DNA of 64,000 nt from an uncultured Candidatus Saccharibacteria bacterium (lineage in GTDB: Bacteria > Patescibacteriota > Minisyncoccia > Phycocordibacterales > UBA5272): assembly GCA_964369115.1 (NCBI GenBank), contig CAYJED010000005.1:2237-66236 (forward strand). Direction: 5' to 3'. The position numbers were made by a program, and so were the translations under genes. The notes beneath the pieces were generated by a model that saw only the letters and a program-made list of their open reading frames with translations, was not told where the DNA came from and did no database searches. How positions within the stretch are numbered: position 1 is the first letter of the stretch; each line of letters begins with the position of its first letter. Below are positions 40,750-59,041 of the stretch, in pieces.

Positions 40750-42150
40750 ATGAGTATCATTAGAAAAAGTGTCGGTACTGGAATTATTATTTTTATTTTC
40801 ATGACACATCAGGCTTTTGCGGTATCTCTTTTAGAGAGTATTCCAATAAGTTGTTTTAATTCTCCGTATTATAAATACGGAAGTGTTCAGGCAAAAGTTA
40901 ATCAGAAACTTGCCACAGTTGAAGCTGGAAACGATTTGCCTTTTGGTGGGGTGATTATTAATAATAATCAGCATCCAATTTCCGAGGCACTTCTTTACGT
41001 AAAAATTGTCGAGGCAAAAAAAGGTCCGTGGGTGCAACGTAACGGCTACAATGTTGTGGATCAATTTGTTGCCGTGCGAGATCTTCCAATTGCTGCAAGT
41101 AGTTCAAAACAGATTACGTTTACATGGAAAACCCCAAAAGGGTTAGCTCCAGGGGAGTATAGAGCTCTTTACTATGTTTCTCTTAAAGAAGATAAAGACA
41201 TTAGCGGTCTTAATTTTTCTGATGATATCACAGCAAATCAGACTTCATTTAAAGTAACTTCAAAACAAGTAGATAATGCTCCTGTTTTTTTTGTAAAAGA
41301 CAAAGTAACACTTAATGGTATGGCGAATGAATTTGCTCGACCTCAGCTTGAGTTTTTGGCTGGGACGCCTGTCACCTTAAAAGCAACCCTAAAGAACCCT
41401 TCAAAGAAAGAGACTAAAGTTATCGTGACATATAAATATACCGACTGGGGACCACTTTTTGGAACACCAGAAGTAACTCGAGAATCTTTTGTAATCCCTG
41501 CAGGTAAGACGCAGGAAATTACAAAAACCTTTTATTCAAAAGGATATGTTGCTCCGTTTATTTTGGTGAGTGCATACGATGAAACAACTGGAGTAAAGTC
41601 CGAGCTTAATATTCGCTACAGTGATGATAAAAAAGGGGTTCGTGCTCACTACCTTGGGGTAATGAAGTTTCCATTAAAAGAAGATGAACAAACTGAGGTC
41701 TATACATGTTTTCATGCTCTTAATGAAACTGGATATGGAAATGGACAAGTAAAAGTAGAGTTAAGAGGATATGATAGAAGTGGTCGTGAAATCTTCAGTA
41801 AAGAAGAAATGACATCTTCTACCAATCTTCCAAAACAGGGTCTTGCGTACAAGCTTCAAGCAACACGAGATATTACCTATCTTAAACTTGAATCTGTTAT
41901 AACGGCCGACGGTGTAACATATAGTGCTGCAACAACTTATGATTGTTTAATTCTTAATAACTGCCCTGAGCTTAAGTACAAAGGAACAGATTTGTATAAA
42001 CAGGCAAACAAGGAACGCTCTGGTACTTCTCCGTTCTTTGCAGGGACTGTTGCGGGAATATTATTTATTCTTATTACTGGAAGCACAGTGTTTTTCTTAA
42101 GAAAAAAAATCTTTAAAGATAAAGAAAGTGAAAAGCCTGTAAATAATTAA
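40750..42150 (+). CDS. Secreted, C-terminally TM-anchored surface protein (hypothetical)
   Basis: Signal-peptide-like N-terminus, a beta-rich body, and a C-terminal helix FFAGTVAGILFILITGSTVFFL followed by RKK. Confidence 0.4.
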   Translation: MSIIRKSVGTGIIIFIFMTHQAFAVSLLESIPISCFNSPYYKYGSVQAKVNQKLATVEAGNDLPFGGVIINNNQHPISEALLYVKIVEAKKGPWVQRNGYNVVDQFVAVRDLPIAASSSKQITFTWKTPKGLAPGEYRALYYVSLKEDKDISGLNFSDDITANQTSFKVTSKQVDNAPVFFVKDKVTLNGMANEFARPQLEFLAGTPVTLKATLKNPSKKETKVIVTYKYTDWGPLFGTPEVTRESFVIPAGKTQEITKTFYSKGYVAPFILVSAYDETTGVKSELNIRYSDDKKGVRAHYLGVMKFPLKEDEQTEVYTCFHALNETGYGNGQVKVELRGYDRSGREIFSKEEMTSSTNLPKQGLAYKLQATRDITYLKLESVITADGVTYSAATTYDCLILNNCPELKYKGTDLYKQANKERSGTSPFFAGTVAGILFILITGSTVFFLRKKIFKDKESEKPVNN

Positions 42151-42155
42151 AAATC

Positions 42156-42920
42156 ATGAAAAAAATACTCATAGCAAGTTTTTTTATAGTAGCGATTGTT
42201 CAAAGTGCTTTTGCGGGAAGTGTAACAGTTGATATACCAGATACTCCGTCAGGGGGGACCGAATTTGGGTCGCCGTATAGTCAGGTAACGTATACAGGAC
42301 GCGTTATAAATCAACTTGGACAAGAAATATCTGAAGGCGGTAGGGTTAAGGTTGGCGATGTTTTGACCCTGGTGAAAGATTCGTATTCAGATAATACGCA
42401 GATTTATTATTTCTGTCCAGCTGGCCCAAATCCCGGTTCTCCATACGGTTATTGGAATAATAACCCAACTTCACAAAATGGAGATCTTTATGTTAAGCCA
42501 CCTGTTACAAACATTTCAGTACAAGGTTTTTCTGTGAATCCATATTTTACATGTTGGTATGATGGTGAATCTTGTGATCCTTACAGTAACCCCGAGTGTC
42601 AAGTTTGTGGGTTAAACACAGACGCTCCTGAGTATGATCCAAAAAGTGATGCTCCAGGTGGTGTAAATTGTGTAGCAAATACTTGCACAATAACAGGAGC
42701 AGGAAATATTAAAGCAACTTTTGTTATGAGCGAAACTGATTTTCGTTCAAACTACTCTACTTCTGCTCGACACAATTCATGCACAACCAATGTAAATGGA
42801 AAAGTTTCGGCAACTGGTTTTACTATAAGTTTTTTTGCAGAATCGTTGGCGCCAAATGTAGAAATTCGCTTTAGTTTTTTTGAAAAAGTGAAAAGTTTCC
42901 TGAAAGAGATGTTTTCGTAA
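42156..42920 (+). CDS. Secreted Cys-rich protein (hypothetical)
   Basis: Signal peptide MKKILIASFFIVAIVQSAFA and multiple Cys pairs in the mature part. Confidence 0.4.
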   Translation: MKKILIASFFIVAIVQSAFAGSVTVDIPDTPSGGTEFGSPYSQVTYTGRVINQLGQEISEGGRVKVGDVLTLVKDSYSDNTQIYYFCPAGPNPGSPYGYWNNNPTSQNGDLYVKPPVTNISVQGFSVNPYFTCWYDGESCDPYSNPECQVCGLNTDAPEYDPKSDAPGGVNCVANTCTITGAGNIKATFVMSETDFRSNYSTSARHNSCTTNVNGKVSATGFTISFFAESLAPNVEIRFSFFEKVKSFLKEMFS

Positions 42921-42925
42921 AAAAT

Positions 42926-42960
42926 AAAACCACTATAGAAATATAGTGGTTTTATTTTTA
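42926..42960 (+). terminator. Rho-independent terminator
   Basis: aaaccactata-gaaa-tatagtggttt + tatttttat. Confidence 0.55.
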
Positions 42961-43259
42961 TATATTGGTGGGTCGACCGCAAAACTTTCTCGTCGCAAGC
43001 TCCTCGAAAATGTTTCGCGACTCTCATTCGACTCCGACGAAAGTGACGCAGATGGGCGGGGTCGCGAGTACGCTTTCGGTCACCGCTACGGCTCGTTTCA
43101 AAAAGTTTTACTTTTTTCATCTCGGCACGTAGCCTCGACCCCGAGAAAAACCGACAAAATTATAAGCATAAAAGTCTGAAATAAAACTTTTTATACTTAT
43201 AATTTCGTAGACCGGTTTTTCGTTCGACCCCGACATAAGTTAGTTTTGACTAACTTATT

Positions 43260-43324
43260 CCCATCTCCACAAAATTAAAATACTCCACCTAAAAGGTGGA
43301 GTATTTTAATTTTGTGGAGATGGG
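43260..43324. repeat. Perfect 30-bp palindrome (inverted repeat with 5-nt loop) overlapping the 3' end of ssrA
   Basis: cccatctccacaaaattaaaatactccacc / taaaa / ggtggagtattttaattttgtggagatggg. Confidence 0.8.
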
Positions 43325-43705
43325 CGGGGTCGAACCGCCGTGTCACATGGTAGTGTATACACTTCTACGATATGTAGTTTGCTTTTTGTGTTCACAGAAG
43401 CAATAAAAAACAAACGAAAGCTACTTCTGTAGAGCATGCGATTATTTCAGATGAAATATGATGCAAGACCTCATCCTACATCTTCTGTCATATTGCTGAG
43501 TTCATTTCCGAAGATACGAAATGAGTCAACACCAGATCGGCCTTAAATTTAGGCGAATGCTGGAACTAGTCCTGCCATATATGGCGAAGGAATAGCCTTA
43601 CCAGTTGATTTTGCAACATGGTTACTCAAACGTTAACGAGTGCTTGAGTACTCTCGATATCGCGCCTACACACTATGCATATGATCGAAGCCAAAGTACA
43701 TCCCC
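43315..43705 (-). ncRNA. ssrA: tmRNA (SsrA)
   Basis: The minus strand 5' end GGGGAUGUACUUUGGCUUCGAUCA matches the tmRNA 5' consensus (GGGGcUGauUcUGGaUUCGAc). The 3' end carries a T-arm GGCGG-UUCGACC-CCGCC followed by CAUCUCC and discriminator A. The acceptor GGGGAUG/CAUCUCC pairs with a G3:U70 wobble. A candidate resume codon GCA sits near nt ~92. The gene is immediately downstream of smpB. Confidence 0.65.
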
Positions 43706-43709
43706 ATTT

Positions 43710-44141
43710 TTAGTGCTCGCGTAACTCTCTACGTGAAATATCTTTTTTAATCAATTCACGTTTATCGTTTGTGGTTTTTTTCTTACACAAAGCAATATCG
43801 CATTTAACGAGACCTTTTTTAAGATATAACGAATGTGGGGCAAGTGTCAAGGTTTTAGCTGTCTCTGTATCGGAAAGTTTATAAAGCTCTTCTTTTTTAA
43901 GGAGAAGGCGACGTGTTCGGTAGGGGTCGTATGATTTTGGAGTATTTGCTGGCTGGTATGCTGGAATATATCCACCCACTAAAAACCCTTCACCTCCACG
44001 AATAATAATACGTGCACCATCAAGTGATCCAAGCTTACTTCGAAGGGATTTTACTTCAAAACCAAACAGTTCTACACCGGCTTCAATATTTTCGGTAATA
44101 GTGTAGGTGAGATGCAGTTTTTTATACTCAATAAGACGCAT
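43710..44141 (-). CDS. smpB: SsrA-binding protein
   Basis: FEVKSLRSKLGSLDGARIIIRGGEGFLVGGYIPAYQ...YRTRRLLLKKEEL. Confidence 0.85.
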   Translation of the reverse strand: MRLIEYKKLHLTYTITENIEAGVELFGFEVKSLRSKLGSLDGARIIIRGGEGFLVGGYIPAYQPANTPKSYDPYRTRRLLLKKEELYKLSDTETAKTLTLAPHSLYLKKGLVKCDIALCKKKTTNDKRELIKKDISRRELREH

Positions 44142-46373: not shown

Positions 46374-46606
46374 GAGCAAACCTTCTCTTTCTTGTTTCAT
46401 CCCTTCAACTATTTGAGGGGATCTTTTTATTATGAGATTTTATTTTTATTTTGTCAAAATATAAAAAAGTTACATAGGCCTTGCCTGTGTAACTTTTTTA
46501 TTCACTTGTTTTTTATAAACAAAGTGCGCCTCCTTGGACCAGAAACCTATGGACCTGTTCGTGTACTAAGGCAAGATTTCTACAGTTAACCAAAAAATAC
46601 TCTGAG

Positions 46607-46679
46607 TGCGCCTACCTGGACTCGAACCAGGGACCAGTCGTGTATAAGACGACGGCTCTACCAACTGAGCTATAGGCGC
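46607..46679 (-). tRNA. tRNA with anticodon UAU (Ile; decodes AUA)
   Basis: The minus strand GCGCCTA-TA-GCTC-AGTTGGTA-GAGC-C-GTCGT-CTTATAC-ACGAC-TGGTC-CCTGG-TTCGAGT-CCAGG-TAGGCGC-A gives a perfect 7-bp acceptor, U8, a GG in the D-loop, a TTCGAGT T-loop, U33, anticodon T34A35T36, and A37. CCA is not encoded. Confidence 0.7.
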
Positions 46680-50574: not shown

Positions 50575-53500
50575 TTATCCTTCGTTACTTGTACTTACGT
50601 TAACTCGTTTTGTTTCTTTTGTTCCTGTTTGGCACGCTGCTGTAAATTCTGTTGTGTAACGAATTTGTCGTACTGTTTTCTTTCCAAGGGCTTTGTAGTC
50701 AGTAGGGTTATCTGTCGGACTGTGACCTGGAGCAAAATTACGAAGAGATGTGCGCAGATTTCTTTTTCCGTTCGGATCATTTCCGTCAGTTTCTTCTGCT
50801 GGACTGCTGAGGATATCATTGATTCCTTTCTCGTAGTCTTTTTGTTCTTGTGAACATGAATTATTTACACAGAGAACTTTTGCGCTAAGGGTACAAGTAT
50901 TATCGGGATACTGAATAGCCCACGTAAGTACTGTTTGACCTCCTTTTTCAATGGTTACAGGAGAAATGTTAAGTAATGCTTTTGGTGATTTTGGTACCAT
51001 ATCGAAATAAACTGACCATGGATCACTTTCGACATTTCCGTGCTTACAGATAATGGTATATGTCGCACTTGCATCAGGTGTAAAGTCTTGTGGCCCACTG
51101 TAGACAGTGTTATCTATTTCTAGTACACCGTTTTTTAGAATTTTCCATGCATTTGCACTAGAACAAATGAAGTTAATGTTTGGTGGAAATCCTGGGAATC
51201 CGTATTCTCCTGTTTTTACAACACCAGTAACTTCAGGGTCTACACATTTTCCTCCAACGCTGTCCCATTTTCCAGGTCCTGCAGTACAAGCAACTGATAC
51301 ATCTTCAGAATCAAGGGGTGGTTCGCCATTATTATAGAGGAATATTTTTACGGTAGATTTTGCAGCGGTGAGATTTATCGGCTGGTTAACTCCACTGTTA
51401 GCTGTATAGACGATGGTGCCATTTGGACTATTATGCGTAATTTGAGATGTTCCTATTGGATCTTGTGTAGACCATGTAGCACGCACCTGACAAGTGCTAT
51501 CTCCTGTTGCGATGCTGCATGACAGTGGTGCAACAGAAAGTGATCCCGTAGGTAGGGTACATGCAGGCTTAGTGACAGATCCGTTGTTACAGTTTCCACC
51601 TGCACATCCTCCATTACCACAAACTACACAACTACCAGCATCCATAACACGATCTGCTGGACAGATATCACATGTTGGTGGATTCGTAGCACCGTTAGCA
51701 CAGGATGGAGGGGTACATACAGGAGGGTTTGCTCCACCGTTATTACAACTTCCGTCTGTACATCCTCCATTTAGACACACTACACAACTACCAGCATCCA
51801 TAACACGATCTGCTGGACAGATATCACATGTTGGTGGATTCGTAGCACCGTTAGCACAAGCATTAGGCTCACAACTGTCTCCATCCCATGATGTACCATT
51901 TGCACAACTTGCTGTAGTGTTTGTTGTGTCAAGAATTGTTCCTCCAACAAGAACTCCAGCATTGTTTACACCTCCATACTGAACACGATAACACCCACCT
52001 GTGTAGCCACTAAACACAGAAGCACTTTGGTCTCCTGTAAGATATGAACCATAGATGCCATTACTACAGTCAGTGAGAATAACAGGGGTTATATTTGCAG
52101 AAGTCCATGTAAGAGTTGGATTACAAGAAGAATTACCAGAGGATACTGTACAAGAAAATGGTTCGTTAGTGAATGATGCTGTTGGTCCTGCATTAGGCGC
52201 GCAATTATCTCCATCCCACGATGTTCCGTTTGCACAGCTAGTTGTAATCACTTTAGTCGCAAGCTCTACGGTGTTGTTGTACAAATAGTAGGTGATTCCA
52301 CTTCCACTGTAAGGAACAGCTACACTGTAGTTATTTTCACTGTCGTCATTGATTTTAACATTAACATTTCCTGTTCTTGTTACAGAGCTTCCTCCAGCAT
52401 TTTGAGGGTAACTAACGCTCCATGATAGTGACACATTACAGGTGCTGTTTCCTGAACTGATAACACAAGAGTTAGCAGAAGAGGTGAGAGTTCCTGACAT
52501 AAGTCGACATCTGTTATCTGTGTGCACATGTCTTCCTGTGTTACATTGTCCAGTAACGTCAATAGTTTTAAGAGTTACCCCATTGTTTTTTAATGAATGT
52601 CTAGATGGTGAAAGGTAACCAAAAGCTGAAACGCTTTTTGTGTCCTCATGTTGTGGACTATAGATTACAGCACTGTCAGAATCTCGTACAATTTGTGTTG
52701 TTGCACTTTCTGGGTTTGTAACTTTCCAATACAAGGTGACAGCACAGTTGGTTGCGTCATCAGCAATGGTACACGTTGTACCACTAGGTGCTGTAAGAGT
52801 TCCAGTCATAGTGCCAGGACATGTAGGGTAGTTCGCATGTCCATTTTTACATGTTCCTGCACATTTCCATGCATTGTCTGCGCCAAATGCATCATAGTTT
52901 GTGTCAGTTGAAACATTACATCCCCATTTAGGAGCGGAACATGAAAGGCTTCCACATTTCCAATTCCAAGCAGCTGCTGTATCTGCTGCATCTGTGAATG
53001 TTCCACTAGAACACGCTACTCCTCCTGAAGGTTGTGCATCAGGATTTTGAATAGTTCCATTTCCTGTACCACATGAGTCAGCGGGTGCCGTTGTCGTAAA
53101 CGTCGCATCTGCTGAGAAGTAGTATGTTCCACCACTATCTCGTACAAATCCTCTGTAGTGGTATGTGGTATTTGCCAACATACTTCCACCGCGCGCATGA
53201 CTAAACACTCCTGTAGACACTCCTCCTGCATTAGTTGTTTCTGCCGAACAGTTAGTTAAAGGATCTACAACTGATCCCCAACAGGTACCACGTTCAGTTA
53301 TTGTTTTTGTTCCTGCTGATCTAAAGTTTGCTCCAAGTGTTGCTCCTGTTGAGGTGATGTTTGATGCAGTAGGGGTGTCGATGACGGGGTTTAAGGTACA
53401 TGCAGGCTTAATGGTAGAGCCGTTATTACAAACATGGTTTGTACATCCCGAACCTTGACAAGCTTCACAGGAGTCACCGTCCCATGCAGAGTTTGAAGCA

Positions 53501-56340
53501 CAGTCTGCTGTAACGTTAACTGTAGCAAGCTCTTTTGAATTGTTGTAAAGTCTGAAGATATGAGGTTTAGGGTATTGCGCACCTGGTATATCCAGTATAT
53601 AGCGAGCTTGAAGGGATTGACTGCCGTTATTGACAGAATTACTAGATGGCCCTCCGCCGTCACCTACAACTTGAGATACTCCACTTGTTGCATTTGTTGT
53701 TGTCCAAGTAAAGAGAGACCAACATGTGCTTGCTCCGTTTAATATAGTACAAGCTTCAGGAGAAGCTGAGAGAGTTCCTGACATGGCACTTGGTGCCGTT
53801 GTCGTAAACGTCGCATCTGCTGAGAAGTAGTATGTTCCACCACTATCTCGTACAAATCCTCTGTAGTGGTATGTGGTATTTGCCAACATACTTCCACCGC
53901 GCGCATGACTAAACACTCCTGTAGACACTCCTCCTGCATTAGTTGTTTCTGCCGAACAGTTAGTTAAAGGATCTACAACTGATCCCCAACAGGTACCACG
54001 TTCAGTTATTGTTTTTGTTCCTGCTGATCTAAAGTTTGCTCCAAGTGTTGCTCCTGTTGAGGTGATGTTTGATGCAGTAGGGGTGTCGATGACGGGGTTT
54101 AAGGTACATGCAGGCTTGATGGTAGAGCCGTTATTACAAACATGATTTGTACATCCTCCATTTTGACAAGCTTCACAGGAGTCACCGTCCCACACAGATC
54201 CTGAAGCACAGTCTGCGGTAACGTTAACTGTAGCAAGCTCTTTTGAATTGTTGTAAAGTCTGAAGGTGTGAGGGTTAGGGTATTGAGCGTTTGGTATATA
54301 GCGAGCTTGAAGGGATTGACTGCCGTTATTGACAGAATTACTAGATGGCCCTCCGCCGTCACCTACAACTTGAGATACTCCACTTGTTGCATTTGTTGTT
54401 GTCCAAGTAAAGAGAGACCAACATGTGCTTGCTCCGTTTAATATAGTACAAGCTTCAGGAGAAGCTGAGAGAGTTCCTGACATACCACCTGCCGCCGCTG
54501 TCGTAAACGTCGCATCTGCTGAGTAGTAGTATGTTCCACCACTGTCTCGTACAAACCCTCTATAGTGGTATGTGGTATTTGCCAACATACTTCCACGCGC
54601 ATGGCTAAATACTCCTGTTGCTGTACTTCCTTCTGCCACACAGTTACTTGAAGGATTTGCAAGTGATCCCCAACAGGTACCACGTTCAGTTATTGTTTTT
54701 GTTCCTGCTGATCTAAAGTTTGCTCCAAGTGTTGCTCCTGTTGAGGTGATGTTTGATGCAGTAGGGGTGTCGATGACGGGGTTTAAGGTACATGCAGGCT
54801 TGATGGTAGAGCCGTTATTACAAACATGATTTGTACATCCTCCATTTTGACAAGCTTCACAGGAGTCACCGTCCCACACAGATCCTGAAGCACAGTCTGC
54901 GGTAACGTTAACTGTAGCAAGCTCTTTTGAATTGTTGTAAAGTCTGAAGGTGTGAGGGTTAGGGTATTGAGCGTTTGGTATATAGCGAGCTTGAAGGGAT
55001 TGACTGCCGTTATTGACAGAATTACTAGATGGCCCTCCGCCGTCACCTACAACTTGAGATACTCCACTTGTTGCATTTGTTGTTGTCCAAGTAAAGAGAG
55101 ACCAACATGTGCTTGCTCCGTTTAATATAGTACAAGCTTCAGGAGAAGCTGAGAGAGTTCCTGACATACCACCTGCCGCCGCTGTCGTAAACGTCGCATC
55201 TGCTGAGTAGTAGTATGTTCCACCACTGTCTCGTACAAACCCTCTATAGTGGTATGTGGTATTTGCCAACATACTTCCACGCGCATGGCTAAATACTCCT
55301 GTTGCTGTACTTCCTTCTGCCACACAGTTACTTGAAGGATTTGCAAGTGATCCCCAACAGGTACCACGTTCAGTTATTGTTTTTGTTCCTGCTGATCTAA
55401 AGTTTGCTCCAAGTGTTGCTCCTGTTGAGGTGATGTTTGATGCAGTAGGGGTGTCGATGACGGGGTTTAAGGTACATGCAGGCTTAATGGTGGAGCCATT
55501 TGTACAACTCAGACTACCGTCAGGGTCACTGACACTTCCTCCTGTACCTGTACATCCGCTATTACCACATGCAACACACCCTGACCCTGCTGTAAAGTAT
55601 TTCCCGTCGAGACAGCGAGTTACTGTTTCTTGAATAGAAGAAGTCGCACTCTTTGTGCCATTTTTTACAACGTAGTCTGTATTTCTAACACACCCCACAT
55701 CTCCTTCTTGGGCATTTGTGTTGCTATTTCCTGATGCGCTTGTGAATGTCCCAAACACTTTCCATGCAGTATCAGTGTTCCATGAGTTGTTTGCACAAGA
55801 TCCGGTGAGTCTATATCTGTCTGAGTACGTTGCGCCATTTGTAGAGCTCCATGTTTTTGTATTTGCGGTTCCTGCTGGATAGCTGATGGTAGAGACGTTG
55901 GTACCATATGAGCCGGCGGTTATTTTAAGTGAGGCAGTTGGGTCTGCAGCGACACATGCACTACCGTTCCAAGAAGGCCTTCCTAGTGAAAGTGAACCAC
56001 CACAGTCTTCTACAGTAAGAGTATCCGATCCAGTTACTGAATCGCGTGTACACGTAAAACTAAAAGTATCAACTGTTTTAATACTAGCAAAAGTGGCACT
56101 ACCGTTTCCGGCTCGACGGCTTCCGTTCCACTGTACACCGTTTTGGTCTATAATATCATTTGGATTGCCGGTATACGTACTATTTGCATCACAGTCAGTT
56201 GCATTTAGAACAGACCAGTTGATGGTGGCATCTTTTCCTCTCTCTATCGTTTTAGCATAGGTGGTAGTTGTAGAAATAATGACTAAAAGTAAAGAAAAAA
56301 GAATACCGCGAATAATAAGTTTATAGCTATTGTATACCAT
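50575..56340 (-). CDS. Giant secreted/cell-surface protein (1921 aa), Cys/Thr/Ser/Gly/Asn-rich with internal tandem repeats
   Basis: N-terminal signal/anchor MVYNSYKLIIRGILFSLLLVIISTTTTYA. There are four ~228-aa repeats (NGSTIKPACTLNPVIDTPTASNITSTGATLGANFRSAGTKTITERGTCWGS...YHYRGFVRDSGGTYY...), a duplicated Cys-rich module (CANGATNPPTCDICPADRVMDAGSCVVC x2), and a conserved C-terminal ~130-aa domain shared with the 60711-62396 protein. Confidence 0.7.
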   Translation of the reverse strand: MVYNSYKLIIRGILFSLLLVIISTTTTYAKTIERGKDATINWSVLNATDCDANSTYTGNPNDIIDQNGVQWNGSRRAGNGSATFASIKTVDTFSFTCTRDSVTGSDTLTVEDCGGSLSLGRPSWNGSACVAADPTASLKITAGSYGTNVSTISYPAGTANTKTWSSTNGATYSDRYRLTGSCANNSWNTDTAWKVFGTFTSASGNSNTNAQEGDVGCVRNTDYVVKNGTKSATSSIQETVTRCLDGKYFTAGSGCVACGNSGCTGTGGSVSDPDGSLSCTNGSTIKPACTLNPVIDTPTASNITSTGATLGANFRSAGTKTITERGTCWGSLANPSSNCVAEGSTATGVFSHARGSMLANTTYHYRGFVRDSGGTYYYSADATFTTAAAGGMSGTLSASPEACTILNGASTCWSLFTWTTTNATSGVSQVVGDGGGPSSNSVNNGSQSLQARYIPNAQYPNPHTFRLYNNSKELATVNVTADCASGSVWDGDSCEACQNGGCTNHVCNNGSTIKPACTLNPVIDTPTASNITSTGATLGANFRSAGTKTITERGTCWGSLANPSSNCVAEGSTATGVFSHARGSMLANTTYHYRGFVRDSGGTYYYSADATFTTAAAGGMSGTLSASPEACTILNGASTCWSLFTWTTTNATSGVSQVVGDGGGPSSNSVNNGSQSLQARYIPNAQYPNPHTFRLYNNSKELATVNVTADCASGSVWDGDSCEACQNGGCTNHVCNNGSTIKPACTLNPVIDTPTASNITSTGATLGANFRSAGTKTITERGTCWGSVVDPLTNCSAETTNAGGVSTGVFSHARGGSMLANTTYHYRGFVRDSGGTYYFSADATFTTTAPSAMSGTLSASPEACTILNGASTCWSLFTWTTTNATSGVSQVVGDGGGPSSNSVNNGSQSLQARYILDIPGAQYPKPHIFRLYNNSKELATVNVTADCASNSAWDGDSCEACQGSGCTNHVCNNGSTIKPACTLNPVIDTPTASNITSTGATLGANFRSAGTKTITERGTCWGSVVDPLTNCSAETTNAGGVSTGVFSHARGGSMLANTTYHYRGFVRDSGGTYYFSADATFTTTAPADSCGTGNGTIQNPDAQPSGGVACSSGTFTDAADTAAAWNWKCGSLSCSAPKWGCNVSTDTNYDAFGADNAWKCAGTCKNGHANYPTCPGTMTGTLTAPSGTTCTIADDATNCAVTLYWKVTNPESATTQIVRDSDSAVIYSPQHEDTKSVSAFGYLSPSRHSLKNNGVTLKTIDVTGQCNTGRHVHTDNRCRLMSGTLTSSANSCVISSGNSTCNVSLSWSVSYPQNAGGSSVTRTGNVNVKINDDSENNYSVAVPYSGSGITYYLYNNTVELATKVITTSCANGTSWDGDNCAPNAGPTASFTNEPFSCTVSSGNSSCNPTLTWTSANITPVILTDCSNGIYGSYLTGDQSASVFSGYTGGCYRVQYGGVNNAGVLVGGTILDTTNTTASCANGTSWDGDSCEPNACANGATNPPTCDICPADRVMDAGSCVVCLNGGCTDGSCNNGGANPPVCTPPSCANGATNPPTCDICPADRVMDAGSCVVCGNGGCAGGNCNNGSVTKPACTLPTGSLSVAPLSCSIATGDSTCQVRATWSTQDPIGTSQITHNSPNGTIVYTANSGVNQPINLTAAKSTVKIFLYNNGEPPLDSEDVSVACTAGPGKWDSVGGKCVDPEVTGVVKTGEYGFPGFPPNINFICSSANAWKILKNGVLEIDNTVYSGPQDFTPDASATYTIICKHGNVESDPWSVYFDMVPKSPKALLNISPVTIEKGGQTVLTWAIQYPDNTCTLSAKVLCVNNSCSQEQKDYEKGINDILSSPAEETDGNDPNGKRNLRTSLRNFAPGHSPTDNPTDYKALGKKTVRQIRYTTEFTAACQTGTKETKRVNVSTSNEG
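52720..55494 (-). repeat. Four in-frame tandem repeats of ~684 nt inside the giant gene (two copies nucleotide-identical, two diverged)
   Basis: The ORF track shows identical translated sub-ORFs at a 684-nt offset (54099-54362 = 54783-55046, and 54438-54683 = 55122-55367). Diverged copies lie at 53391-53663 and 53739-53939. Confidence 0.8.
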
Positions 56341-56492: not shown

Positions 56493-56813
56493 ATGCGGAT
56501 TCATATTTTTAAATTAAAAAAAAATACTGAATTTCTTCTAAAGCAGTGGGGAGAAGAAGTTTCTTCTGATAGTAAAGAAGAAGCGATTCAAAGTCTTTTA
56601 GAAGAAAACTGCCTTGAAGAATCATTACGAATTTTTAAAATTAACAATGATATGTATCTTGTTGGTGTAATGGTAGCCTTAGATTCAAAAGGTCTTTTTG
56701 AACCAAATCAAAAAAGATCTATAAATAAAAAACACTTTTCTATTTTAAAAGAATGCATAGAAGAAGAAATTTCTCAAGATAAAATTTACAACGTTCGTGC
56801 AGATAAAAAATGA
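56493..56813 (+). CDS. Small protein upstream of the SagB-YcaO fusion (possible leader-peptide-binding/RRE-like accessory protein; hypothetical)
   Basis: 106-aa ORF whose stop overlaps the start of the downstream enzyme (ATGA), indicating translational coupling. No catalytic motif. The sequence is not Cys/Ser/Thr-rich, so it is not itself the precursor. Confidence 0.35.
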   Translation: MRIHIFKLKKNTEFLLKQWGEEVSSDSKEEAIQSLLEENCLEESLRIFKINNDMYLVGVMVALDSKGLFEPNQKRSINKKHFSILKECIEEEISQDKIYNVRADKK

Positions 56814-59041
56814 TAGAAAAAACTCCACTTAAAGAAAAAAAACCTATAATACATTCTTTTGGTAAATATGAGAGCGGTTTTTTTTCTTTTGTAAATTACT
56901 GGGGAGAGATCTCTTTTGAGGTAGATGAGATGATAGCAGAAAAAATAAACAGTATTTGCTTTAAATGTACCGGAACTAACTCTGTAGCAGAAATAATTAA
57001 ATCTTTTAACAAAGATGAAGAGGTGGAGTTGCTAGAGATCTTCGAGTTATTATTTGATAATAAGGTGATTTTTGATTCAAGAGAGTTTTATAAAATTTTT
57101 CATGAAGCATCAGAGTCTCCTTCTCGCTATACTTACAGTTTTTCTGACGATGAGATTAATTCTTTTAAAGCAAAATGCAGAAGTATAGTTCATCCAGAAG
57201 GGGAACTTATTTCTTTGAGAACTGTTTCAAATACTTTATTTACTGATCTTGTCTTAAATAGAAAATCTATTAGAAATTTTTCTGGAGCATCTATAACTGA
57301 TCAAGAGTTATCTGACCTTCTGATCTTATCATATTCAACAAATAGGCATAAGTCGACGCCGTCCGGTGGAGGGTTCTATCCTTTGCGTGTATATTTTTTG
57401 CTTCGTCTTAAAACTGAATCTTTAAGCCCGGGTCTGTATTTTTATAACCACGAAAAATCTTGTATCGTTAAAGTTTCAGAGCTTCCTCTTTTAAAAGATG
57501 AGTATTTTGAAGTTGTTTTAGGGGCACCTATGTATAACAGCAGTTCTGTAGTTATTTTTGTAGGATGTGATTTTAATTTAGTTACTAAAAAATATGCAAA
57601 TAGAGCATATAGGATGGCTCTTCTTGAAGCTGGTCATCTATGTCAAAATGTTTATCTATGCACTTCAAAAACTGAACTTGGTGTGGTTGAATACGGCGGG
57701 TGGAACGATGAAGTTCTCGAGTTTTTGCTAGATATAAAAGATAAAAATATTTTAATTCTTTCTACTTTATTTATCGGACATAAACAAGAAAATAGCTCTT
57801 CTGAGAACAAAACATTTGAAGATATTGAAGAAAAGCTAAGATCTAGTATTTGTCTTAAAGATTCTGGTATTGTTCGTTTTTTTGAGACGGAGTTATTTCA
57901 TTTTAATAATTACATTATGCCTGGATACGCCTCAGTTGCGAGATATGTTAGAGATAGAGATTTAGATAAAAGAAATCCAAAACTTTACTCAGCATTTGGT
58001 TTTGCTAAAACAATATCTGAATCAAGAGTTAAGGCTATTGCAGAAGCTTTCGAGAGATATGTCTCTGGCAGATATAGAGTCGATGAAATTGTTATACCAA
58101 ATAATGCTAAAGAAAAGTTTTTTAATATACTTGAAAATACACATCAAGATATTTTGTATATGAAAGAAAATAATTTATCAATTATTGACTATACAAAAAA
58201 ATGTTCTGTAGTATGGGCTTCGTACCTCCTTGATTCCAATAAAAATGATTATTGCTATGTTCCTGTCGATCATGTTTTTTATCCTATAAGTAAAAAAGAT
58301 GTTTTGCATGATATTTCTTTCCATTCTAATTCTACAGGGGTTGCAGCTCATACCCACTATGAAACAGCAGTTAAAAAAGCATTATTTGAATTAGTGGAAA
58401 GAGATGCTGTTGCGGTCATGTGGTTTTCTAAGATCTCACCAAAAAAAATAGATACCAAATCACTTCCTGAGGATCTTTTTCTTAGGGTTGAGGCTCTTCA
58501 AAAAATCGGCAGGGAGGTTGTTTTTTTTGACATAACAACAGACTCAGTTCCTGTTATTTTATGTTTATGTTATGGTGATTTTTTTCCTATGACAACCTCA
58601 GGGTGTTCTGCTCAAGAGGATCCTGTGGAGGCATGTAGAAAAGCTTTAGATGAAGCAGAATTTATTTTCAACTCCTGGAAAAGAGTTAAAAGAGAAAAGA
58701 AGGAATATTTTGAAGTTAAGTCAGCGACTGATCATGGTGATCTTTTTGCGTGGACAAACCTTAAAGAAGACCATAATTTAAAATGGCTTTTAGAAGGTCG
58801 TGTTATATCTATGCCTGCTGCCAAACAGGATGTTTATTCTAGTTTATTAAAAACACATAACCCCGTAGTTGTTCTCCTTTCCATGAAACATGAACCTCTT
58901 TTTGTTGTAAGAGTTTTGTCTAAAACATTGTATCCTTTTACTTTTGGATACGGTTCTGAGTTTTATGGACACCAAAGATTGAAGATGTTAGGATTAAAGT
59001 GGGGTCAGAATTACCCGTCTTTTCCCCATTTAATTGCATAA
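56810..59041 (+). CDS. Fused SagB-type (nitroreductase-fold, FMN-dependent) dehydrogenase / YcaO-domain cyclodehydratase, a TOMM/LAP-type azol(in)e-forming RiPP enzyme
   Basis: The N-terminal half has NRKSIRNF and TPSGGGFYPLRVY (SagB/McbC-type motifs RxSxRxF and PSAGxxYP). The C-terminal half has the YcaO motifs FGFAKTISESRVKAIAEAFERYVSG and SNSTGVAAHTHYETAVKKALFELVERDAV (ATP/Mg-binding ExxER...ERD). Confidence 0.7.
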   Translation: MIEKTPLKEKKPIIHSFGKYESGFFSFVNYWGEISFEVDEMIAEKINSICFKCTGTNSVAEIIKSFNKDEEVELLEIFELLFDNKVIFDSREFYKIFHEASESPSRYTYSFSDDEINSFKAKCRSIVHPEGELISLRTVSNTLFTDLVLNRKSIRNFSGASITDQELSDLLILSYSTNRHKSTPSGGGFYPLRVYFLLRLKTESLSPGLYFYNHEKSCIVKVSELPLLKDEYFEVVLGAPMYNSSSVVIFVGCDFNLVTKKYANRAYRMALLEAGHLCQNVYLCTSKTELGVVEYGGWNDEVLEFLLDIKDKNILILSTLFIGHKQENSSSENKTFEDIEEKLRSSICLKDSGIVRFFETELFHFNNYIMPGYASVARYVRDRDLDKRNPKLYSAFGFAKTISESRVKAIAEAFERYVSGRYRVDEIVIPNNAKEKFFNILENTHQDILYMKENNLSIIDYTKKCSVVWASYLLDSNKNDYCYVPVDHVFYPISKKDVLHDISFHSNSTGVAAHTHYETAVKKALFELVERDAVAVMWFSKISPKKIDTKSLPEDLFLRVEALQKIGREVVFFDITTDSVPVILCLCYGDFFPMTTSGCSAQEDPVEACRKALDEAEFIFNSWKRVKREKKEYFEVKSATDHGDLFAWTNLKEDHNLKWLLEGRVISMPAAKQDVYSSLLKTHNPVVVLLSMKHEPLFVVRVLSKTLYPFTFGYGSEFYGHQRLKMLGLKWGQNYPSFPHLIA

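Follow-up and report, generated by a model that had tools for sequence, protein, structure and literature searches.

The segment at positions 42966–43270, behind the tmRNA gene of the analysed window (64,000 nucleotides of a contig from an uncultured Candidatus Saccharibacteria bacterium), consists of two tandem, cargo-less members of one conserved element family. The members of this family are small non-coding elements of ~85–280 bp, located 3' of tRNA and tmRNA genes in Patescibacteria. That mobile DNA inserts at such genes is textbook knowledge. Neither Rfam 15 nor the searchable literature, by contrast, yielded a compact, gene-free, structurally conserved element that lies at nt 55|56 of many different tRNA genes and has the host 3' end in both sense and antisense orientation.

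The smpB–ssrA locus

The features of the locus are:

43710–44141, minus strand: smpB, 143 aa (Pfam SmpB, E=4.2e-34)
43312–43705, minus strand: tmRNA gene, ssrA (Rfam RF00023, full length, 86.8 bits)
43315–43332, minus strand: s1, the tmRNA 3' end from T-loop C56 to discriminator A73, CGACCCCGCCCAUCUCCA (repeat family D2); this segment is duplicated downstream
43260–43324, no strand: perfect palindrome, 31+3+31 (inverted repeat I1), with unitig breaks at 43295 and 43289
42920–42959, no strand: second bidirectional terminator-like hairpin with an 18-bp perfect stem (inverted repeat I2)

The tmRNA gene of the window is ordinary. The initial annotation recognised a smpB–ssrA locus with a minus-strand tmRNA carrying G3:U70, and both the pair and the assignment are borne out. 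An identical copy of the SmpB protein is present on 7 Logan contigs, and the smpB stop codon lies 4 nt ahead of the tmRNA 5' end. The Rfam tmRNA model, one of two checks suggested at the time, matches the gene over model positions 1–374 (gathering score 47). The acceptor, read from the sequence, pairs GGGGAUG with CAUCUCC and includes G3:U70; the T-arm is GGCGG-UUCGACC-CCGCC. The mature RNA probably ends at A43315, and the gene does not encode CCA (it reads ...CUCCA-CAA). ARAGORN, the other check, was negative for a tmRNA in the window and reported a tRNA-Ile as its sole call; it calls tmRNAs in 35 fetched loci, nearly all of them related smpB loci, and it also misses many tmRNAs of relatives that Rfam detects. 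The tag frame (GCA AAA ... GCC UAA) comprises 21 codons with an alanine resume codon and a stop, and encodes AKSTGKAIPSPYMAGLVPAFA. This tag matches the pattern of the lineage, A[KN]...SPY(F)...(P/F)AFA (examples from relatives are AKQSPYFGMADFAPAFA and ANKVAKVKSPYFGKFDFAPAFA), and is therefore normal in it; the reading frame stands as annotated, whereas its doubtful status does not, since AFA-type tags are usual among relatives.

A terminator palindrome and duplicated tmRNA 3' ends

The perfect hairpin annotated at 43260–43324 was confirmed, with arms of 31 nt rather than 30 (43260–43290 and 43294–43324, 100% complementary) and a 3-nt loop; the chance expectation for such a structure is ~1e-13 per 64 kb. 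Its centre (43282–43302) is a terminator-like hairpin, ACUCCACC-UUUUA-GGUGGAGU, bounded by A- and U-tracts, and in its outer 11 nt the acceptor 3' strand pairs with its own antisense copy, aA (43260–43270). The palindrome is a bidirectional terminator whose stem runs on into the antisense acceptor 3' strand. A simple terminator scanner did not call this hairpin, because it counts the entire long stem. The second hairpin (42920–42959) closes both the array and a convergent 254-aa ORF (42156–42920, plus strand).

The reported 15-nt direct repeat of the tmRNA 3' end is exact (AGATGGGCGGGGTCG, 43050–43064 and 43318–43332, 15/15 nt), with ~2e-4 such repeats expected in 700 nt. The motif TCGACCCCG occurs at 43135 and 43224 on the plus strand and at 43325 on the minus strand, and five of its eight one-mismatch matches in the 64-kb window fall inside 43028–43333. 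The two copies in opposite orientation are present, but they are not independent scars: the one at 43224 truly copies the T-arm in antisense, and the one at 43135 is part of the family core motif GGGGTCG(A/C)G. The GC content shows a local rise to 0.53–0.58 at 43000–43150. The statement that this segment has no credible ORF holds in part: mechanical ORFs of 122 aa (42752–43120, minus strand) and 77 aa (plus strand) do exist, neither has a match in Pfam, and both traverse two terminator hairpins.

Independent Logan unitigs reach the palindrome from both sides and are otherwise identical to the window. They end at 43295 from the tmRNA side (L081, L086) and at 43289 from the other side (L096), exactly where a k=31 graph must break. 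The structure is not an assembly artefact, one of the conditions under which the initial annotation would have failed. Three ERR44054xx unitigs end at 43314, and strain heterogeneity begins right at the tmRNA end; these breaks hint at a second haplotype.

Two tandem elements in the window

Element A (hpX type), 43050–43270, minus strand, is homologous to elements behind tRNA-Ser (L001) and tmRNA (L007, L023) and to the L157 dimer. Its parts, all on the minus strand, are:

43260–43270: aA, antisense acceptor
43235–43259: hairpin hp2
43222–43234: aT, antisense T-loop and 3' T-stem
43145–43221: long hairpin hpX
43078–43144: core hairpin, GGGGUCGAG...GGUGACC
43065–43077: linker
43050–43064: direct repeat s2

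Element B (minimal type, 5'-truncated; alignment A1, covariance model R1), 42966–43049, minus strand, is made up of:

43038–43049: 3' arm of hp2
43027–43037: aT, which fits a TTCGACU-type T-loop
42976–43026: core, GAGUCGCGAAAC...GUUUUGCGGU
42966–42975: degenerate repeat s3, CGACCCACCA

Model R1 matches 42958–43075 on the minus strand, the region of Element B, with 61 bits (E=8e-17). In the RNA fold of Element A, aA and aT pair with s2 and close a multi-branch structure. The sense strand of the window segment folds with −120.7 kcal/mol (z=−7.7) and the other strand with −97.4 kcal/mol (z=−5.2), a difference of 23 kcal/mol.

Anatomy, hosts and distribution of the family

Members share one order of parts. 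First comes the 3' end of the host gene, beginning at T-loop nt 56, and then a terminator or short linker. The antisense acceptor follows, in some members accompanied by a hairpin, and after it the antisense T-loop/T-stem, a hairpin core and a direct repeat of the host 3' end. The antisense acceptor strand is often, not always, present, and the antisense T-loop/T-stem is found in each member. The core always ends in ...TTYGTGAC directly before the repeat, the junction is constant (...GTGAC|C56), and the host gene is left intact. The conserved modules that are not templated by the host are hp2 with its CUGC loop, the M module (with a conserved internal loop, GGCGGAGCG...CGCGAGCC, resembling the tandem G·A motif), hpX and the core ending in TTYGTGAC; the ends of the elements are imperfectly inverted (GGTCGCGAA and TTYGTGACC). 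The antisense T segment tracks the T-loop of each genome (TTCGATT, TTCAATT, TTCGAAT, TTCGAAC, TTCGACC, TTCGCCC and TTTCAATA).

The family is present at ~24 of 80 related tmRNA loci, always co-oriented with the tmRNA; roughly 55 of the 80, some of which end just past the tmRNA, show no match to either model. The related loci without elements (L015, L025, L032 and others) are from other species than that of the window, and L017, again a different species, retains just ...TTTTGTGAC and the repeat. Metagenome loci were retrieved with a target-independent core pattern, and 43 of 123 matches lie ≤350 nt downstream of a co-oriented tRNA gene, as do at least 18 of the 23 covariance-model matches (within 350 nt). 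The tRNA hosts in metagenomes cover at least 14 amino-acid specificities, with the element always downstream and co-oriented (30 type-tallied matches represent 13 specificities; the remaining matches add Ala and Glu). A processing or terminator structure peculiar to the lineage, as one early suggestion had it, does not describe the segment, which is not confined to tmRNA, the family following many tRNA types. An identical 44-nt core is found behind tRNA-Trp (L122) and tmRNA (L023); the core thus moves between host genes.

At least 10 elements have a direct repeat that is perfect across 17–23 nt; in others it has decayed, distal repeats more so than proximal ones. Overall the repeat length ranges from 3–7 nt (variant ...GTGAC|CAC) through 17–23 nt to ~68 nt. 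Repeats can run on beyond the gene and take in its trailer or all of the terminator (L118, ~68 nt; L156, ~45 nt), which indicates duplication at the DNA level and not a copy of the mature tRNA. Some distal repeats carry CCA though the gene does not (L104, L160, L122). A reverse-transcribed mature tRNA, with a PBS-like antisense segment, was rejected as a source, as the antisense copies and several repeats hold genomic trailer or terminator. Derivation of the antisense acceptor from the 5' acceptor strand of the tRNA was also rejected: tmRNA elements read GGAGAUG (A3), the complement of the 3' strand, and not GGGGAUG.

Compound arrangements are found as well. In L012, two complete copies of a 281-nt unit follow each other directly, with a 21-nt repeat, and L157 is an element dimer; the arrangements in these two loci are tandem or back-to-back. 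In L144, tRNA-Ser is followed by 5.2 kb with Type III R-M Mod and Res, the antisense segments, the core and the repeat (16/17 nt plus CCA); in L137, tRNA-Ile is followed by a membrane-protein gene (0.9 kb), a core-like end and the repeat. The elements of L163, L126 and L102 lie between co-oriented tRNA genes without a terminator and must therefore be transcribed.

Conservation of the core structure

In alignment A2 (25 elements), 95.5% of cells pair versus 80.2% in shuffles. The covariation score was 0.447 versus 0.154 in shuffles; none of 500 shuffles reached it, and slid controls gave ~0.06. A G·U pair occurs without exception (25/25), and a second one varies between G·U and G-C. The core structure is genuine and favours the sense strand. 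A G·U strand count on regex-collected cores was set aside in favour of the alignment-based counts, since two of the G·U pairs are dictated by the search pattern and the test is thus largely circular. The per-site divergence was 0.14 for the antisense T segment versus 0.31–0.45 for the distal repeat (unfiltered values, the antisense match being the best of a window), and the antisense T segment is nearly always within 0–2 mismatches of perfect.

A reading of the plus strand as a gene that ends like a tmRNA (T-loop, hairpin, acceptor strand and terminator) was rejected, because it turns the conserved G·U pairs into A·C mismatches and because this strand folds less well, by 23 kcal/mol. A self-cleaving ribozyme was likewise rejected: set beside the hammerhead core by eye, the three-way junction lacks CUGANGA and has GAC, not NUH, as its triplet. 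Rfam 15 at the gathering threshold gave only tmRNA and tRNA in the window and no described family for the elements. At E≤10, a search of 42800–43340 returned the tmRNA 3' end and generic sub-threshold matches, mostly microRNA hairpins on the palindrome; at E≤0.5, five M-type loci returned tRNAs and weak sub-threshold matches outside the element cores only. Full-text literature searches turned up the Dehalococcoides ssrA islands as precedent, but no description of the element.

Origin of the elements

The elements may be cargo-less miniature integrative elements accreted at the tmRNA T-loop, a reading that we favour and to which we give roughly even credence. An incoming element would insert site-specifically into the T-loop between nt 55 and 56, with a recombinase acting in trans, and would bring a replacement 3' end and terminator, so that the old 3' end is pushed downstream. 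Integrative elements that target ssrA and tRNA genes likewise replace the 3' end and displace the old one. Successive insertions would accrete a tandem array, in which Element A of the window would be newer and Element B older and truncated. The 31-bp palindrome would be the terminator of the element, with its stem continuing into the antisense acceptor. When the element is transcribed, its antisense segments are predicted to pair with the displaced repeat in a self-contained multi-branch fold that would not compete with tmRNA folding.

Two observations expected of integrative elements were made. The intact gene is accompanied by a repeat at the far boundary (15/15 nt, with a weaker copy at 42966–42975), which recurs in relatives, and cargo and tandem forms share the same boundaries (L144, L137, L012). 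The 'integration scars' of the initial annotation are in this respect correct, as the repeats are duplicated tmRNA 3' ends and the bracket recurs in relatives (tandem in L012, with cargo in L144 and L137); they are not random scar sequence. Nothing tested shows the repeated excision that was also proposed. The view of the tmRNA 3' end as an integration site held up: in other relatives, large serine recombinase genes adjoin it. This recombinase family has >2000 homologues; its ORFs lie antisense to the tmRNA, and their 3' ends overlap that of the tmRNA. Within the clade, then, the tmRNA 3' end is an integration site in use.

A search for integrase, recombinase or transposase genes found none inside or beside an element, none in the two cargo forms and none among the 26 larger ORFs of the window that were tested; nor was there a tyrosine recombinase among the ORFs tested. 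A direct tie to the serine-recombinase ssrA islands was rejected: in five contexts that were fetched, models R1 and R2 find no core within reach, and the link to the enzyme is thus unproven. In one recombinase context (L223), an 11-nt repeat follows a GCAG-loop hairpin at +7370, the sole such trace in these contexts. A viral or plasmid vehicle was rejected as well, two IMG/VR pattern scans giving only chance matches in coding DNA. BLAST against phage and plasmid collections gave no match to the element, and neither these searches nor the viral-contig scans revealed a free, circular or viral copy. Against mobility, an element specific for one gene 3' end cannot simply hop to another tRNA, and host-matched sense and antisense segments would have to be re-derived at many different genes. 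The range of repeat lengths, 3 to ~68 nt, is unlike a fixed staggered cut.

The better-kept antisense T segment, the invariant G·U pair and the terminator-free spacer elements (L163, L126, L102) point to constraint at the RNA level and not to a passive scar. It is possible, with a probability clearly below even, that the elements are functional cis-acting RNA modules of t(m)RNA units that have spread by duplication, the repeats being helix strands and not scars. Such a module would belong to a 3' trailer or a spacer, and its three-way junction would be closed by pairing between the antisense T-arm segment and the duplicated 3' end; proposed roles are precursor processing, 3'-end definition, insulation, or a minihelix for RNase P, RNase Z or the CCA-adding enzyme. 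The strong covariation, with pairs that favour the sense strand (the invariant G·U and the G·U/G-C alternation), the better fold of the sense strand in the window, the position of the spacer elements between co-oriented tRNA genes, the near-perfect antisense T segment and the resemblance of the M-module loop to tandem G·A all speak for a functional RNA. However, a strong terminator-like hairpin precedes the elements in the window and in many relatives, so that the host promoter would rarely drive their transcription. In many cases the element persists although its distal repeat is badly decayed, Element B of the window is truncated at its 5' end, and most of the related tmRNA loci (the roughly 55 of 80 above) are without a match. 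Cargo inside the bracket and the tandem or back-to-back forms (L012, L157) are insertion-like behaviour. Recombination sites that act as single-stranded DNA (integron attC, IS200/IS605 ends) also carry strand-specific non-Watson–Crick features, and the G·U pairs are therefore not proof of RNA.

An unlikely variant of mobility is a cassette-type system of Patescibacteria, in which the T-arm/3' end of the t(m)RNA would be the acceptor (attI-like), a folded, strand-specific hairpin the donor (attC-like or CTX attP-like), and the recombinase would be encoded elsewhere. Such units, whether empty or loaded with promoterless or defence cargo, would accumulate in stacks behind t(m)RNA genes, and the insertion chemistry would regenerate the host-matched arms.

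Still less probable is a by-product of replication or repair, in which template switching at the terminator palindrome (quasi-palindrome extension and correction) and slippage between T-loop sequences would generate the sense-antisense-sense copies in place, with no mobile element. The perfectly complementary arms include trailer and A/T tracts (window, L102, L138), the antisense copies mirror the genomic trailer and not CCA, and the self-complementary TTCGAA of the T-loop is a natural switch point; arm-to-arm conversion could in addition keep the antisense segment matched while the distal repeat decays. Template switching cannot, however, make non-templated modules that are shared by at least 14 tRNA types and tmRNA across many genomes, nor can it explain identical cores at different host genes or the cargo forms; as the sole explanation it is largely refuted by the conserved core.

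It is very improbable that the segment is an assembly artefact or that the 122-aa ORF is a protein-coding gene: palindromes at contig joins are a familiar assembler artefact and a gene caller did predict the ORF on a Logan contig, but unitigs from other samples reproduce both flanks and break at k=31 limits, the architecture recurs in dozens of unrelated assemblies, and the ORF, without a Pfam match, crosses two terminator hairpins, overlaps the convergent 254-aa ORF and is conserved in its 5' half as paired nucleotides, not codons.

If the elements are mobile, the mechanistic puzzle is how the host-matched arms are made; t(m)RNA 3' ends would be cargo slots (e.g. for Type III R-M) in the streamlined genomes of Patescibacteria, and a circle junction would join ...GGTGACC or ...TTYGTGAC to CGACCCCGCCC-terminator. 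Should they be functional RNAs, they form a new widespread class attached to tRNA operons. In practical terms, the elements interrupt k-mer assemblies wherever they follow a tmRNA or tRNA gene, yield pseudo-tRNA fragments and spurious ORF calls, and may contribute to the tmRNAs missed by ARAGORN in this clade.

Comparison with known systems

The centre of the palindrome resembles bidirectional intrinsic terminators in its GC-rich 8-bp stem, upstream A-tract and downstream U-tract. The stem of an ordinary terminator does not reach 11 nt into the acceptor strand of a mature RNA, whereas that of the window does.

MITE-like repeats (REP/BIME, Correia, RUP, ERIC) share with the elements a size of ~100–250 bp, long imperfect palindromes, co-transcription with neighbours and the lack of coding capacity. 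MITEs have target duplications of fixed length and many dispersed, near-identical copies; here the host 3' end is duplicated over 3 to ~68 nt, the target is a specific position within t(m)RNA genes, and some of the element's own sequence matches the host. Neither a fixed target duplication nor terminal inverted repeats were found, the ends being merely imperfect (GGTCGCGAA/TTYGTGACC).

Like integron attC and the folded attP of CTX-type IMEX phages, the elements have a distal imperfect palindrome whose arms are antisense and sense copies of the acceptor site. As in integron cassettes, the structure is strand-specific and extra-helical, the newest unit lies by the acceptor site, the recombinase is outside, and cargo is co-oriented and sometimes promoterless. 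The elements differ from attC in repeats of 17–23 nt versus 7 nt and in having no linked IntI or Xer gene, and the attC consensus RYYYAAC/GTTRRRY is absent from alignments A1 and A2; folded-strand recombination is pure conjecture for the elements.

CIMEs and degenerate cargo-only remnants occur in tRNA-linked arrays (ICE accretion in Streptococcus, tycheposon arrays in Prochlorococcus). They are, like the elements, att-flanked, recombinase-free and stacked by a t(m)RNA gene, from which the oldest, most decayed unit is farthest. CIMEs are decayed islands of variable content, whereas the elements are a compact family conserved in sequence and structure; because their internal junctions agree between unrelated loci, random deletion is not their origin.

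The ssrA-specific islands of Dehalococcoides are integrative and mobilizable and have a CcrB-like serine recombinase, DsiB (McMurdie et al. 2011, PMC3146451). They insert in the middle of the tmRNA T-loop with a 20-bp repeat and a conserved motif directly upstream of each repeat, and they form tandem arrays downstream of an intact ssrA, in which cargo-only members are read as cis-mobilizable (PMC3146451). T-loop insertion, as proposed for the elements, the motif before the repeat, tandem arrays and the intact ssrA are all shared with the family described here. The islands are kilobases long and mostly have an integration module, whereas the elements are 85–280 bp and gene-free; unlike the islands, the elements have a built-in antisense host 3' end and a covarying hairpin core, and follow not only tmRNA but also at least 14 types of tRNA. 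Overall, the Dehalococcoides ssrA islands are the closest precedent for the elements.

The smpB-tmRNA gene pair

The two genes of the pair were located with Pfam and Rfam as follows.

44141-43710, minus strand: smpB (Pfam SmpB, E=4e-34)
43705-43312, minus strand: tmRNA (Rfam tmRNA model, full length, 86.8 bits; gathering score 47)

The tmRNA that the initial annotation had recognised next to smpB was thus recovered by Rfam; ARAGORN missed it in the window. Only 4 bases separate the smpB stop from the tmRNA start, whereas the gap in relatives is 10–410 nt, commonly ∼80–110 nt. The sole good sigma-70-like site upstream of the tmRNA (region 43706-43850, minus strand) sits within smpB (TTGACA-18-TATCTT, 43850-43821). 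The acceptor stem is GGGGAUG/CAUCUCC, including G3:U70, the T-arm is GGCGG-UUCGACC-CCGCC, and CCA is not encoded (...CUCCA-CAA). The tag frame GCA...UAA yields AKSTGKAIPSPYMAGLVPAFA, which had been called tentative for its length and its AFA end. The tags that ARAGORN reports for related loci (e.g. AKQSPYFGMADFAPAFA, ANSISKVKSPYFGMKDFAPAFA and ANKVAKVKSPYFGKFDFAPAFA) look alike, so a long PAFA-ending tag is the norm of the lineage and not an oddity. Overall, the data show that the tmRNA locus is an ordinary one. The genome belongs to the Patescibacteria. The nearest SmpB relatives are found in MAGs labelled Paceibacterota, Nomurabacteria and Parcubacteria, and many carry the label "uncultured Candidatus Saccharibacteria bacterium".

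The palindrome and the segment behind it

The palindrome at the tmRNA 3' end, first described as 30 bp, consists of two fully complementary arms of 31 nt (43260-43290 and 43294-43324) around a 3-nt loop; by chance ∼1e-13 such palindromes are expected. Its centre (43282-43302) is a GC-rich 8-bp stem, ACUCCACC/GGUGGAGU, with an A-tract on one side and a U-tract on the other, a layout that matches bidirectional intrinsic terminators. A simple terminator scanner did not call it, because it counted the whole 31-bp stem and then detected no U-tract. In the outer 11 nt the 3' strand of the tmRNA acceptor is paired with an antisense copy, GUGGAGAUGGG (43260-43270), showing that the palindrome is a terminator fused with an antisense acceptor segment.

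An assembly artefact was ruled out with Logan unitigs. Two that carry an identical SmpB (L081, L086; L numbers denote loci and contigs compared with the window) end at 43295, and one from the side of a 254-aa ORF (L096) matches the window exactly from 42920 and ends at 43289; these ends are the breaks forced on a k=31 graph by a perfect 31-nt palindrome. Three further unitigs end at 43314, the end of the tmRNA, which suggests a co-existing haplotype that differs directly after the gene. The ORFs convergent with the tmRNA array (466 aa, 40750-42150, and 254 aa, 42156-42920, both plus strand) had no Pfam match; they are conserved beside DUF1295 and IF3 on Logan contigs.

Comparison with relatives, and only this comparison, resolved 42966-43260 into modules, which form two elements, A and B:

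43270-43260, tmRNA strand: element A, antisense acceptor segment
43259-43235, tmRNA strand: element A, hairpin hp2
43234-43222, tmRNA strand: element A, antisense T segment GUCGGGGUCGAAC (antisense of G53 to N65, one mismatch)
43221-43145, tmRNA strand: element A, long hairpin hpX
43144-43078, tmRNA strand: element A, core hairpin GGGGUCGAG...GGUGACC
43077-43065, tmRNA strand: element A, 13-nt linker
43064-43050, tmRNA strand: element A, direct repeat of the tmRNA 3' end
43049-43038: element B, loop and 3' arm of an hp2
43037-43027: element B, antisense T segment UCGGAGUCGAA
43026-42976: element B, core GAGUCGCGAAAC...GUUUUGCGGU
42975-42966: element B, degenerate repeat CGACCCACCA
42959-42920: second bidirectional terminator-like hairpin, after element B

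The 15-nt direct repeat noted initially is exact (43050-43064 and 43318-43332) and marks one boundary of this structure. Both inverted copies of TCGACCCCG belong to element A: the one at 43224 is its antisense T segment, and the one at 43135 is the 5' strand of its core, which is conserved. The sense-strand RNA of 42960-43272 folds with −120.7 kcal/mol (z=−7.7) and the opposite strand with −97.4 kcal/mol (z=−5.2). In the sense fold the antisense acceptor and T segments pair with the repeat, enclosing hp2, hpX and the core. Element A aligns with hpX-type elements behind tRNA-Ser (L001) and tmRNA (L007, L023). These comparisons show that the segment holds two tandem members of a conserved, structured and host-matched element family.

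Elements behind tmRNA genes

Among 80 loci encoding SmpB relatives, Rfam placed the tmRNA shortly downstream of smpB, and in many of them the next 150–300 nt keep one order of modules: (1) a terminator, the stem of which often extends into an antisense acceptor segment; (2) a CUGC-loop hairpin whose stems are compensated (GAAAGUGAC/GUCACUUUC, GAAAGCCAA/UUGGCUUUC, GAACAUGAC/GUCAUGUUC); (3) an antisense copy of the T-loop and 3' T-stem of the same genome; (4) GGGGUCGCGAA, a hairpin and UUYGUGAC; and (5) a direct repeat of the tmRNA 3' end, starting at C56. Long palindromes like that of the window occur in L010, L019 and L028, with an antisense copy of 20 contiguous nt in L019. A covariance model built on nine tmRNA-linked cores (R1, alignment A1) scored 61 bits on element B, and 98 and 91 bits on two untrained copies in L012. 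In this locus a complete unit of 281 nt (3' end, terminator, spacer, antisense segment and core) is present twice in tandem, with a 21-nt repeat and differing terminator hairpins. With R1 and a second model (R2), at least one element was found behind the tmRNA in ∼24 of the 80 loci, always co-oriented with the gene.

In one subtype the terminator hairpin lies between 6–7-bp direct repeats, GCTTCGC, as if it were an insertion in itself. Copies that lack a terminator have a conserved linker, GAACGAAGUGA, after the tRNA. The flanks compared for these features were those of the tmRNA in L001 and L012 and of the tRNA in L126, L030, L163 and L206.

Elements behind tRNA genes

Metagenome contigs were scanned, irrespective of taxonomy, with a pattern confined to the core and free of host-specific sequence (GGGTMGSGAA N20-45 TTYGTGACC). 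A co-oriented tRNA 3' end was present at most 350 nt upstream in 43 of 123 matches; the remaining matches were mostly chance occurrences in coding DNA or lay at contig ends. Among the tRNA-linked matches, the 30 tallied by type represent 13 amino-acid specificities; Ala and Glu come in addition from the remaining 13 matches. Model matches lie 14–60 nt downstream of co-oriented genes for tRNA-Trp, Leu, Lys, Cys, Arg, Pro, Phe, Ser and Asp, and related elements follow tRNA-Ile in SmpB loci. In all cases the antisense and sense segments fit the adjoining tRNA, with the junction ...GUGAC|C56. At least 10 elements have a distal repeat that is perfect across 17–23 nt, whereas in others it has decayed; the 12-nt antisense T segment has 0–2 mismatches in almost all. 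Divergence per site is 0.14 for the antisense T segment versus 0.31–0.45 for the distal repeat (unfiltered values, the antisense segment being the best match within a search interval). Some elements lie between two co-oriented tRNA genes with no terminator (Arg-element-Val, L163; Pro-element-Ala, L126; Leu-element-His, L102) and must therefore belong to the precursor transcript. The data show a family attached to the 3' ends of tmRNA and many tRNA genes; repeats of the host 3' end enclose its members, which in occasional cases carry cargo.

Structure of the elements

For 25 elements of the commonest type (alignment A2), RNAalifold gave a three-way junction as consensus, made up of a closing helix formed by the antisense T segment and the repeat, a hairpin M with a conserved internal loop (GGCGGAGCG/CGCGAGCC) and the core helix.

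Pairing and covariation in alignment A2.
Cells paired: 95.5% observed; 80.2% in shuffles
Compensated cells: 93 observed; 25 in shuffles
Covariation score: 0.447 observed; 0.154 in shuffles (0 of 500 reach the observed value); 0.05–0.08 with slid partners

The closing stem of M covaries independently of the host (one pair is GC in 13, AU in 6 and CG in 6 elements). In the core, one G·U pair is invariant (25/25) and another is G·U or G-C (13/12); read from the other strand, the G·U pairs would turn into A·C mismatches, which together with the covariation argues that the structure is real and belongs to the host-gene strand, as RNA or single-stranded DNA. No match to it was found in Rfam 15.

Brackets, cargo and rearrangements

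Several observations speak for the bracket as a site of insertion. In some loci the repeats extend into the trailer or a whole terminator (∼68 nt in L118, ∼45 nt in L156, an additional 4–5 nt in L150 and L197), and the antisense acceptor copies track the genomic trailer and not CCA; the duplication was thus made on DNA. Locus L144 (2364-7963, minus strand) consists of tRNA-Ser(GCU), 5.2 kb of Type III restriction-modification genes, and then antisense segments, M, core and a repeat of the tRNA 3' end (16/17 nt plus CCA):

7735-5660: Mod
5655-2887: Res

This system is defence cargo inside an element bracket. L137 has a membrane-protein gene in the corresponding place, after tRNA-Ile and before a core-like end with a repeat.

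A 44-nt core is identical behind tRNA-Trp (L122) and tmRNA (L023), and the antisense T segment of L122 is chimeric, its stem part fitting tRNA-Trp and its loop part a UUCGAUU-type host. L157 (∼620-1020, plus strand) has two elements of different subtypes back to back around a single terminator and without a tRNA body; each uses the antisense arm of its partner as its 'host' 3' end, and a hairpin interrupts each of them. In L036 (∼525-680) and L044 (∼205-360; both minus strand), M and core have been inserted into a 5' fragment of tRNA-Ile, after ∼nt 26, and then come ...GUGAC|UCGAGCUUAUAC (anticodon stem-loop), a spacer and the intact tRNA-Ile gene, indicating that the right end of an element can join tRNA positions besides C56. 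In a further variant the repeat is limited to the last 3–7 nt (...GUGAC|CAC). Hairpins are exchanged wholesale between otherwise identical flanks (units of L012; L020 versus L024; L197).

Apart from these elements, tRNA-Ile(UAU) of the window (46607-46679, minus strand) is followed by a 37-nt spacer (46570-46606) and a degenerate copy of its 3' half, from the anticodon loop on (46524-46569, minus strand). Relatives share the gene, a homologous spacer of ∼36 nt and the copy, which is near-perfect in L019 and present as two consecutive copies in L007. This arrangement represents, besides the elements, a second type of partial duplication of t(m)RNA sequence in the clade.

Recombinases at the tmRNA 3' end

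The 26 larger ORFs tested in the window and the cargo of L144 yielded no integrase, transposase or reverse transcriptase. Among 97 ORFs downstream of the tmRNA in the 80 loci, two encode large serine recombinases with Resolvase, Recombinase and Zn-ribbon domains:

L031, 5833-4190, minus strand: large serine recombinase
L043, 5481-3898, minus strand: large serine recombinase

At E≤1e-20, more than 2000 homologues of this family were counted, some of them with Parcubacteria or Paceibacterota as their name. In 4/4 homologues examined for context, the gene points towards tmRNA-smpB in convergent orientation. The final codons of the ORF correspond to the antisense strand of the tmRNA 3' end in all four loci where this end was located by eye, so that integration evidently makes use of the tmRNA 3' end in the clade. 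Behind the recombinase lies variable cargo (DUF4747, acetyltransferases and NUDIX proteins in L031, L043 and L220-L224), including a reverse transcriptase-trypsin fusion, RVT_1-Trypsin_2 (L222, 7365-8945). These loci are probably ssrA-specific islands of Paceibacteria. R1 and R2 found no core module in them; only an 11-nt repeat behind a GCAG-loop hairpin was seen, at the far end of the L223 island.

Three other coding regions of the window were of note. The isoleucyl-tRNA synthetase (22488-26003, plus strand, 1171 aa) has an inserted histidine-phosphatase domain (His_Phos_1, residues ∼529–689), a fusion also present in L222-L224. A nitroreductase-YcaO fusion protein (56810-59041, plus strand, 743 aa) is possibly part of a RiPP or azoline-forming locus. 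The 1921-aa ORF (50575-56340, minus strand) had no Pfam match.

Origin of the elements and comparison with known systems

We favour, with moderate confidence, an origin of the elements by site-specific insertion between positions 55 and 56 of the T-loop, with the recombinase supplied in trans. Each incoming unit would supply a new 3' end and terminator, displacing the previous ones; in the window, A would be the newer unit and B an older, truncated one with a decayed repeat. The main alternative, which we consider somewhat unlikely, is a module that serves primarily as a functional RNA within t(m)RNA transcription units. Such a role is favoured by the G·U pairs of the sense strand, the copies inside operons and the well-kept antisense T segment, but many copies are preceded by terminators, repeats are decayed, forms with cargo exist and the distribution is patchy. 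Insertion and RNA function are mutually compatible. For a selfish insertion that must leave an essential gene undamaged, folding away the duplicated 3' end would be expected. The arms may well be shaped and maintained by template switching at palindromes, but the conserved core cannot come from it.

Insertion at tmRNA and tRNA 3' ends, att repeats and accretion are already known. As in Dehalococcoides, the tmRNA 3' end serves as an integration site in the clade of the window; the Dehalococcoides ssrA islands make a 20-bp repeat preceded by a conserved motif and form tandem arrays with cargo-only members among them (PMC3146451). The present miniature, gene-free, covarying family was found neither in Rfam 15 nor in a limited full-text search of the literature. 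What sets it apart is an antisense arm that forms part of the element, a junction that is constant at 55|56 and the broad range of host genes.
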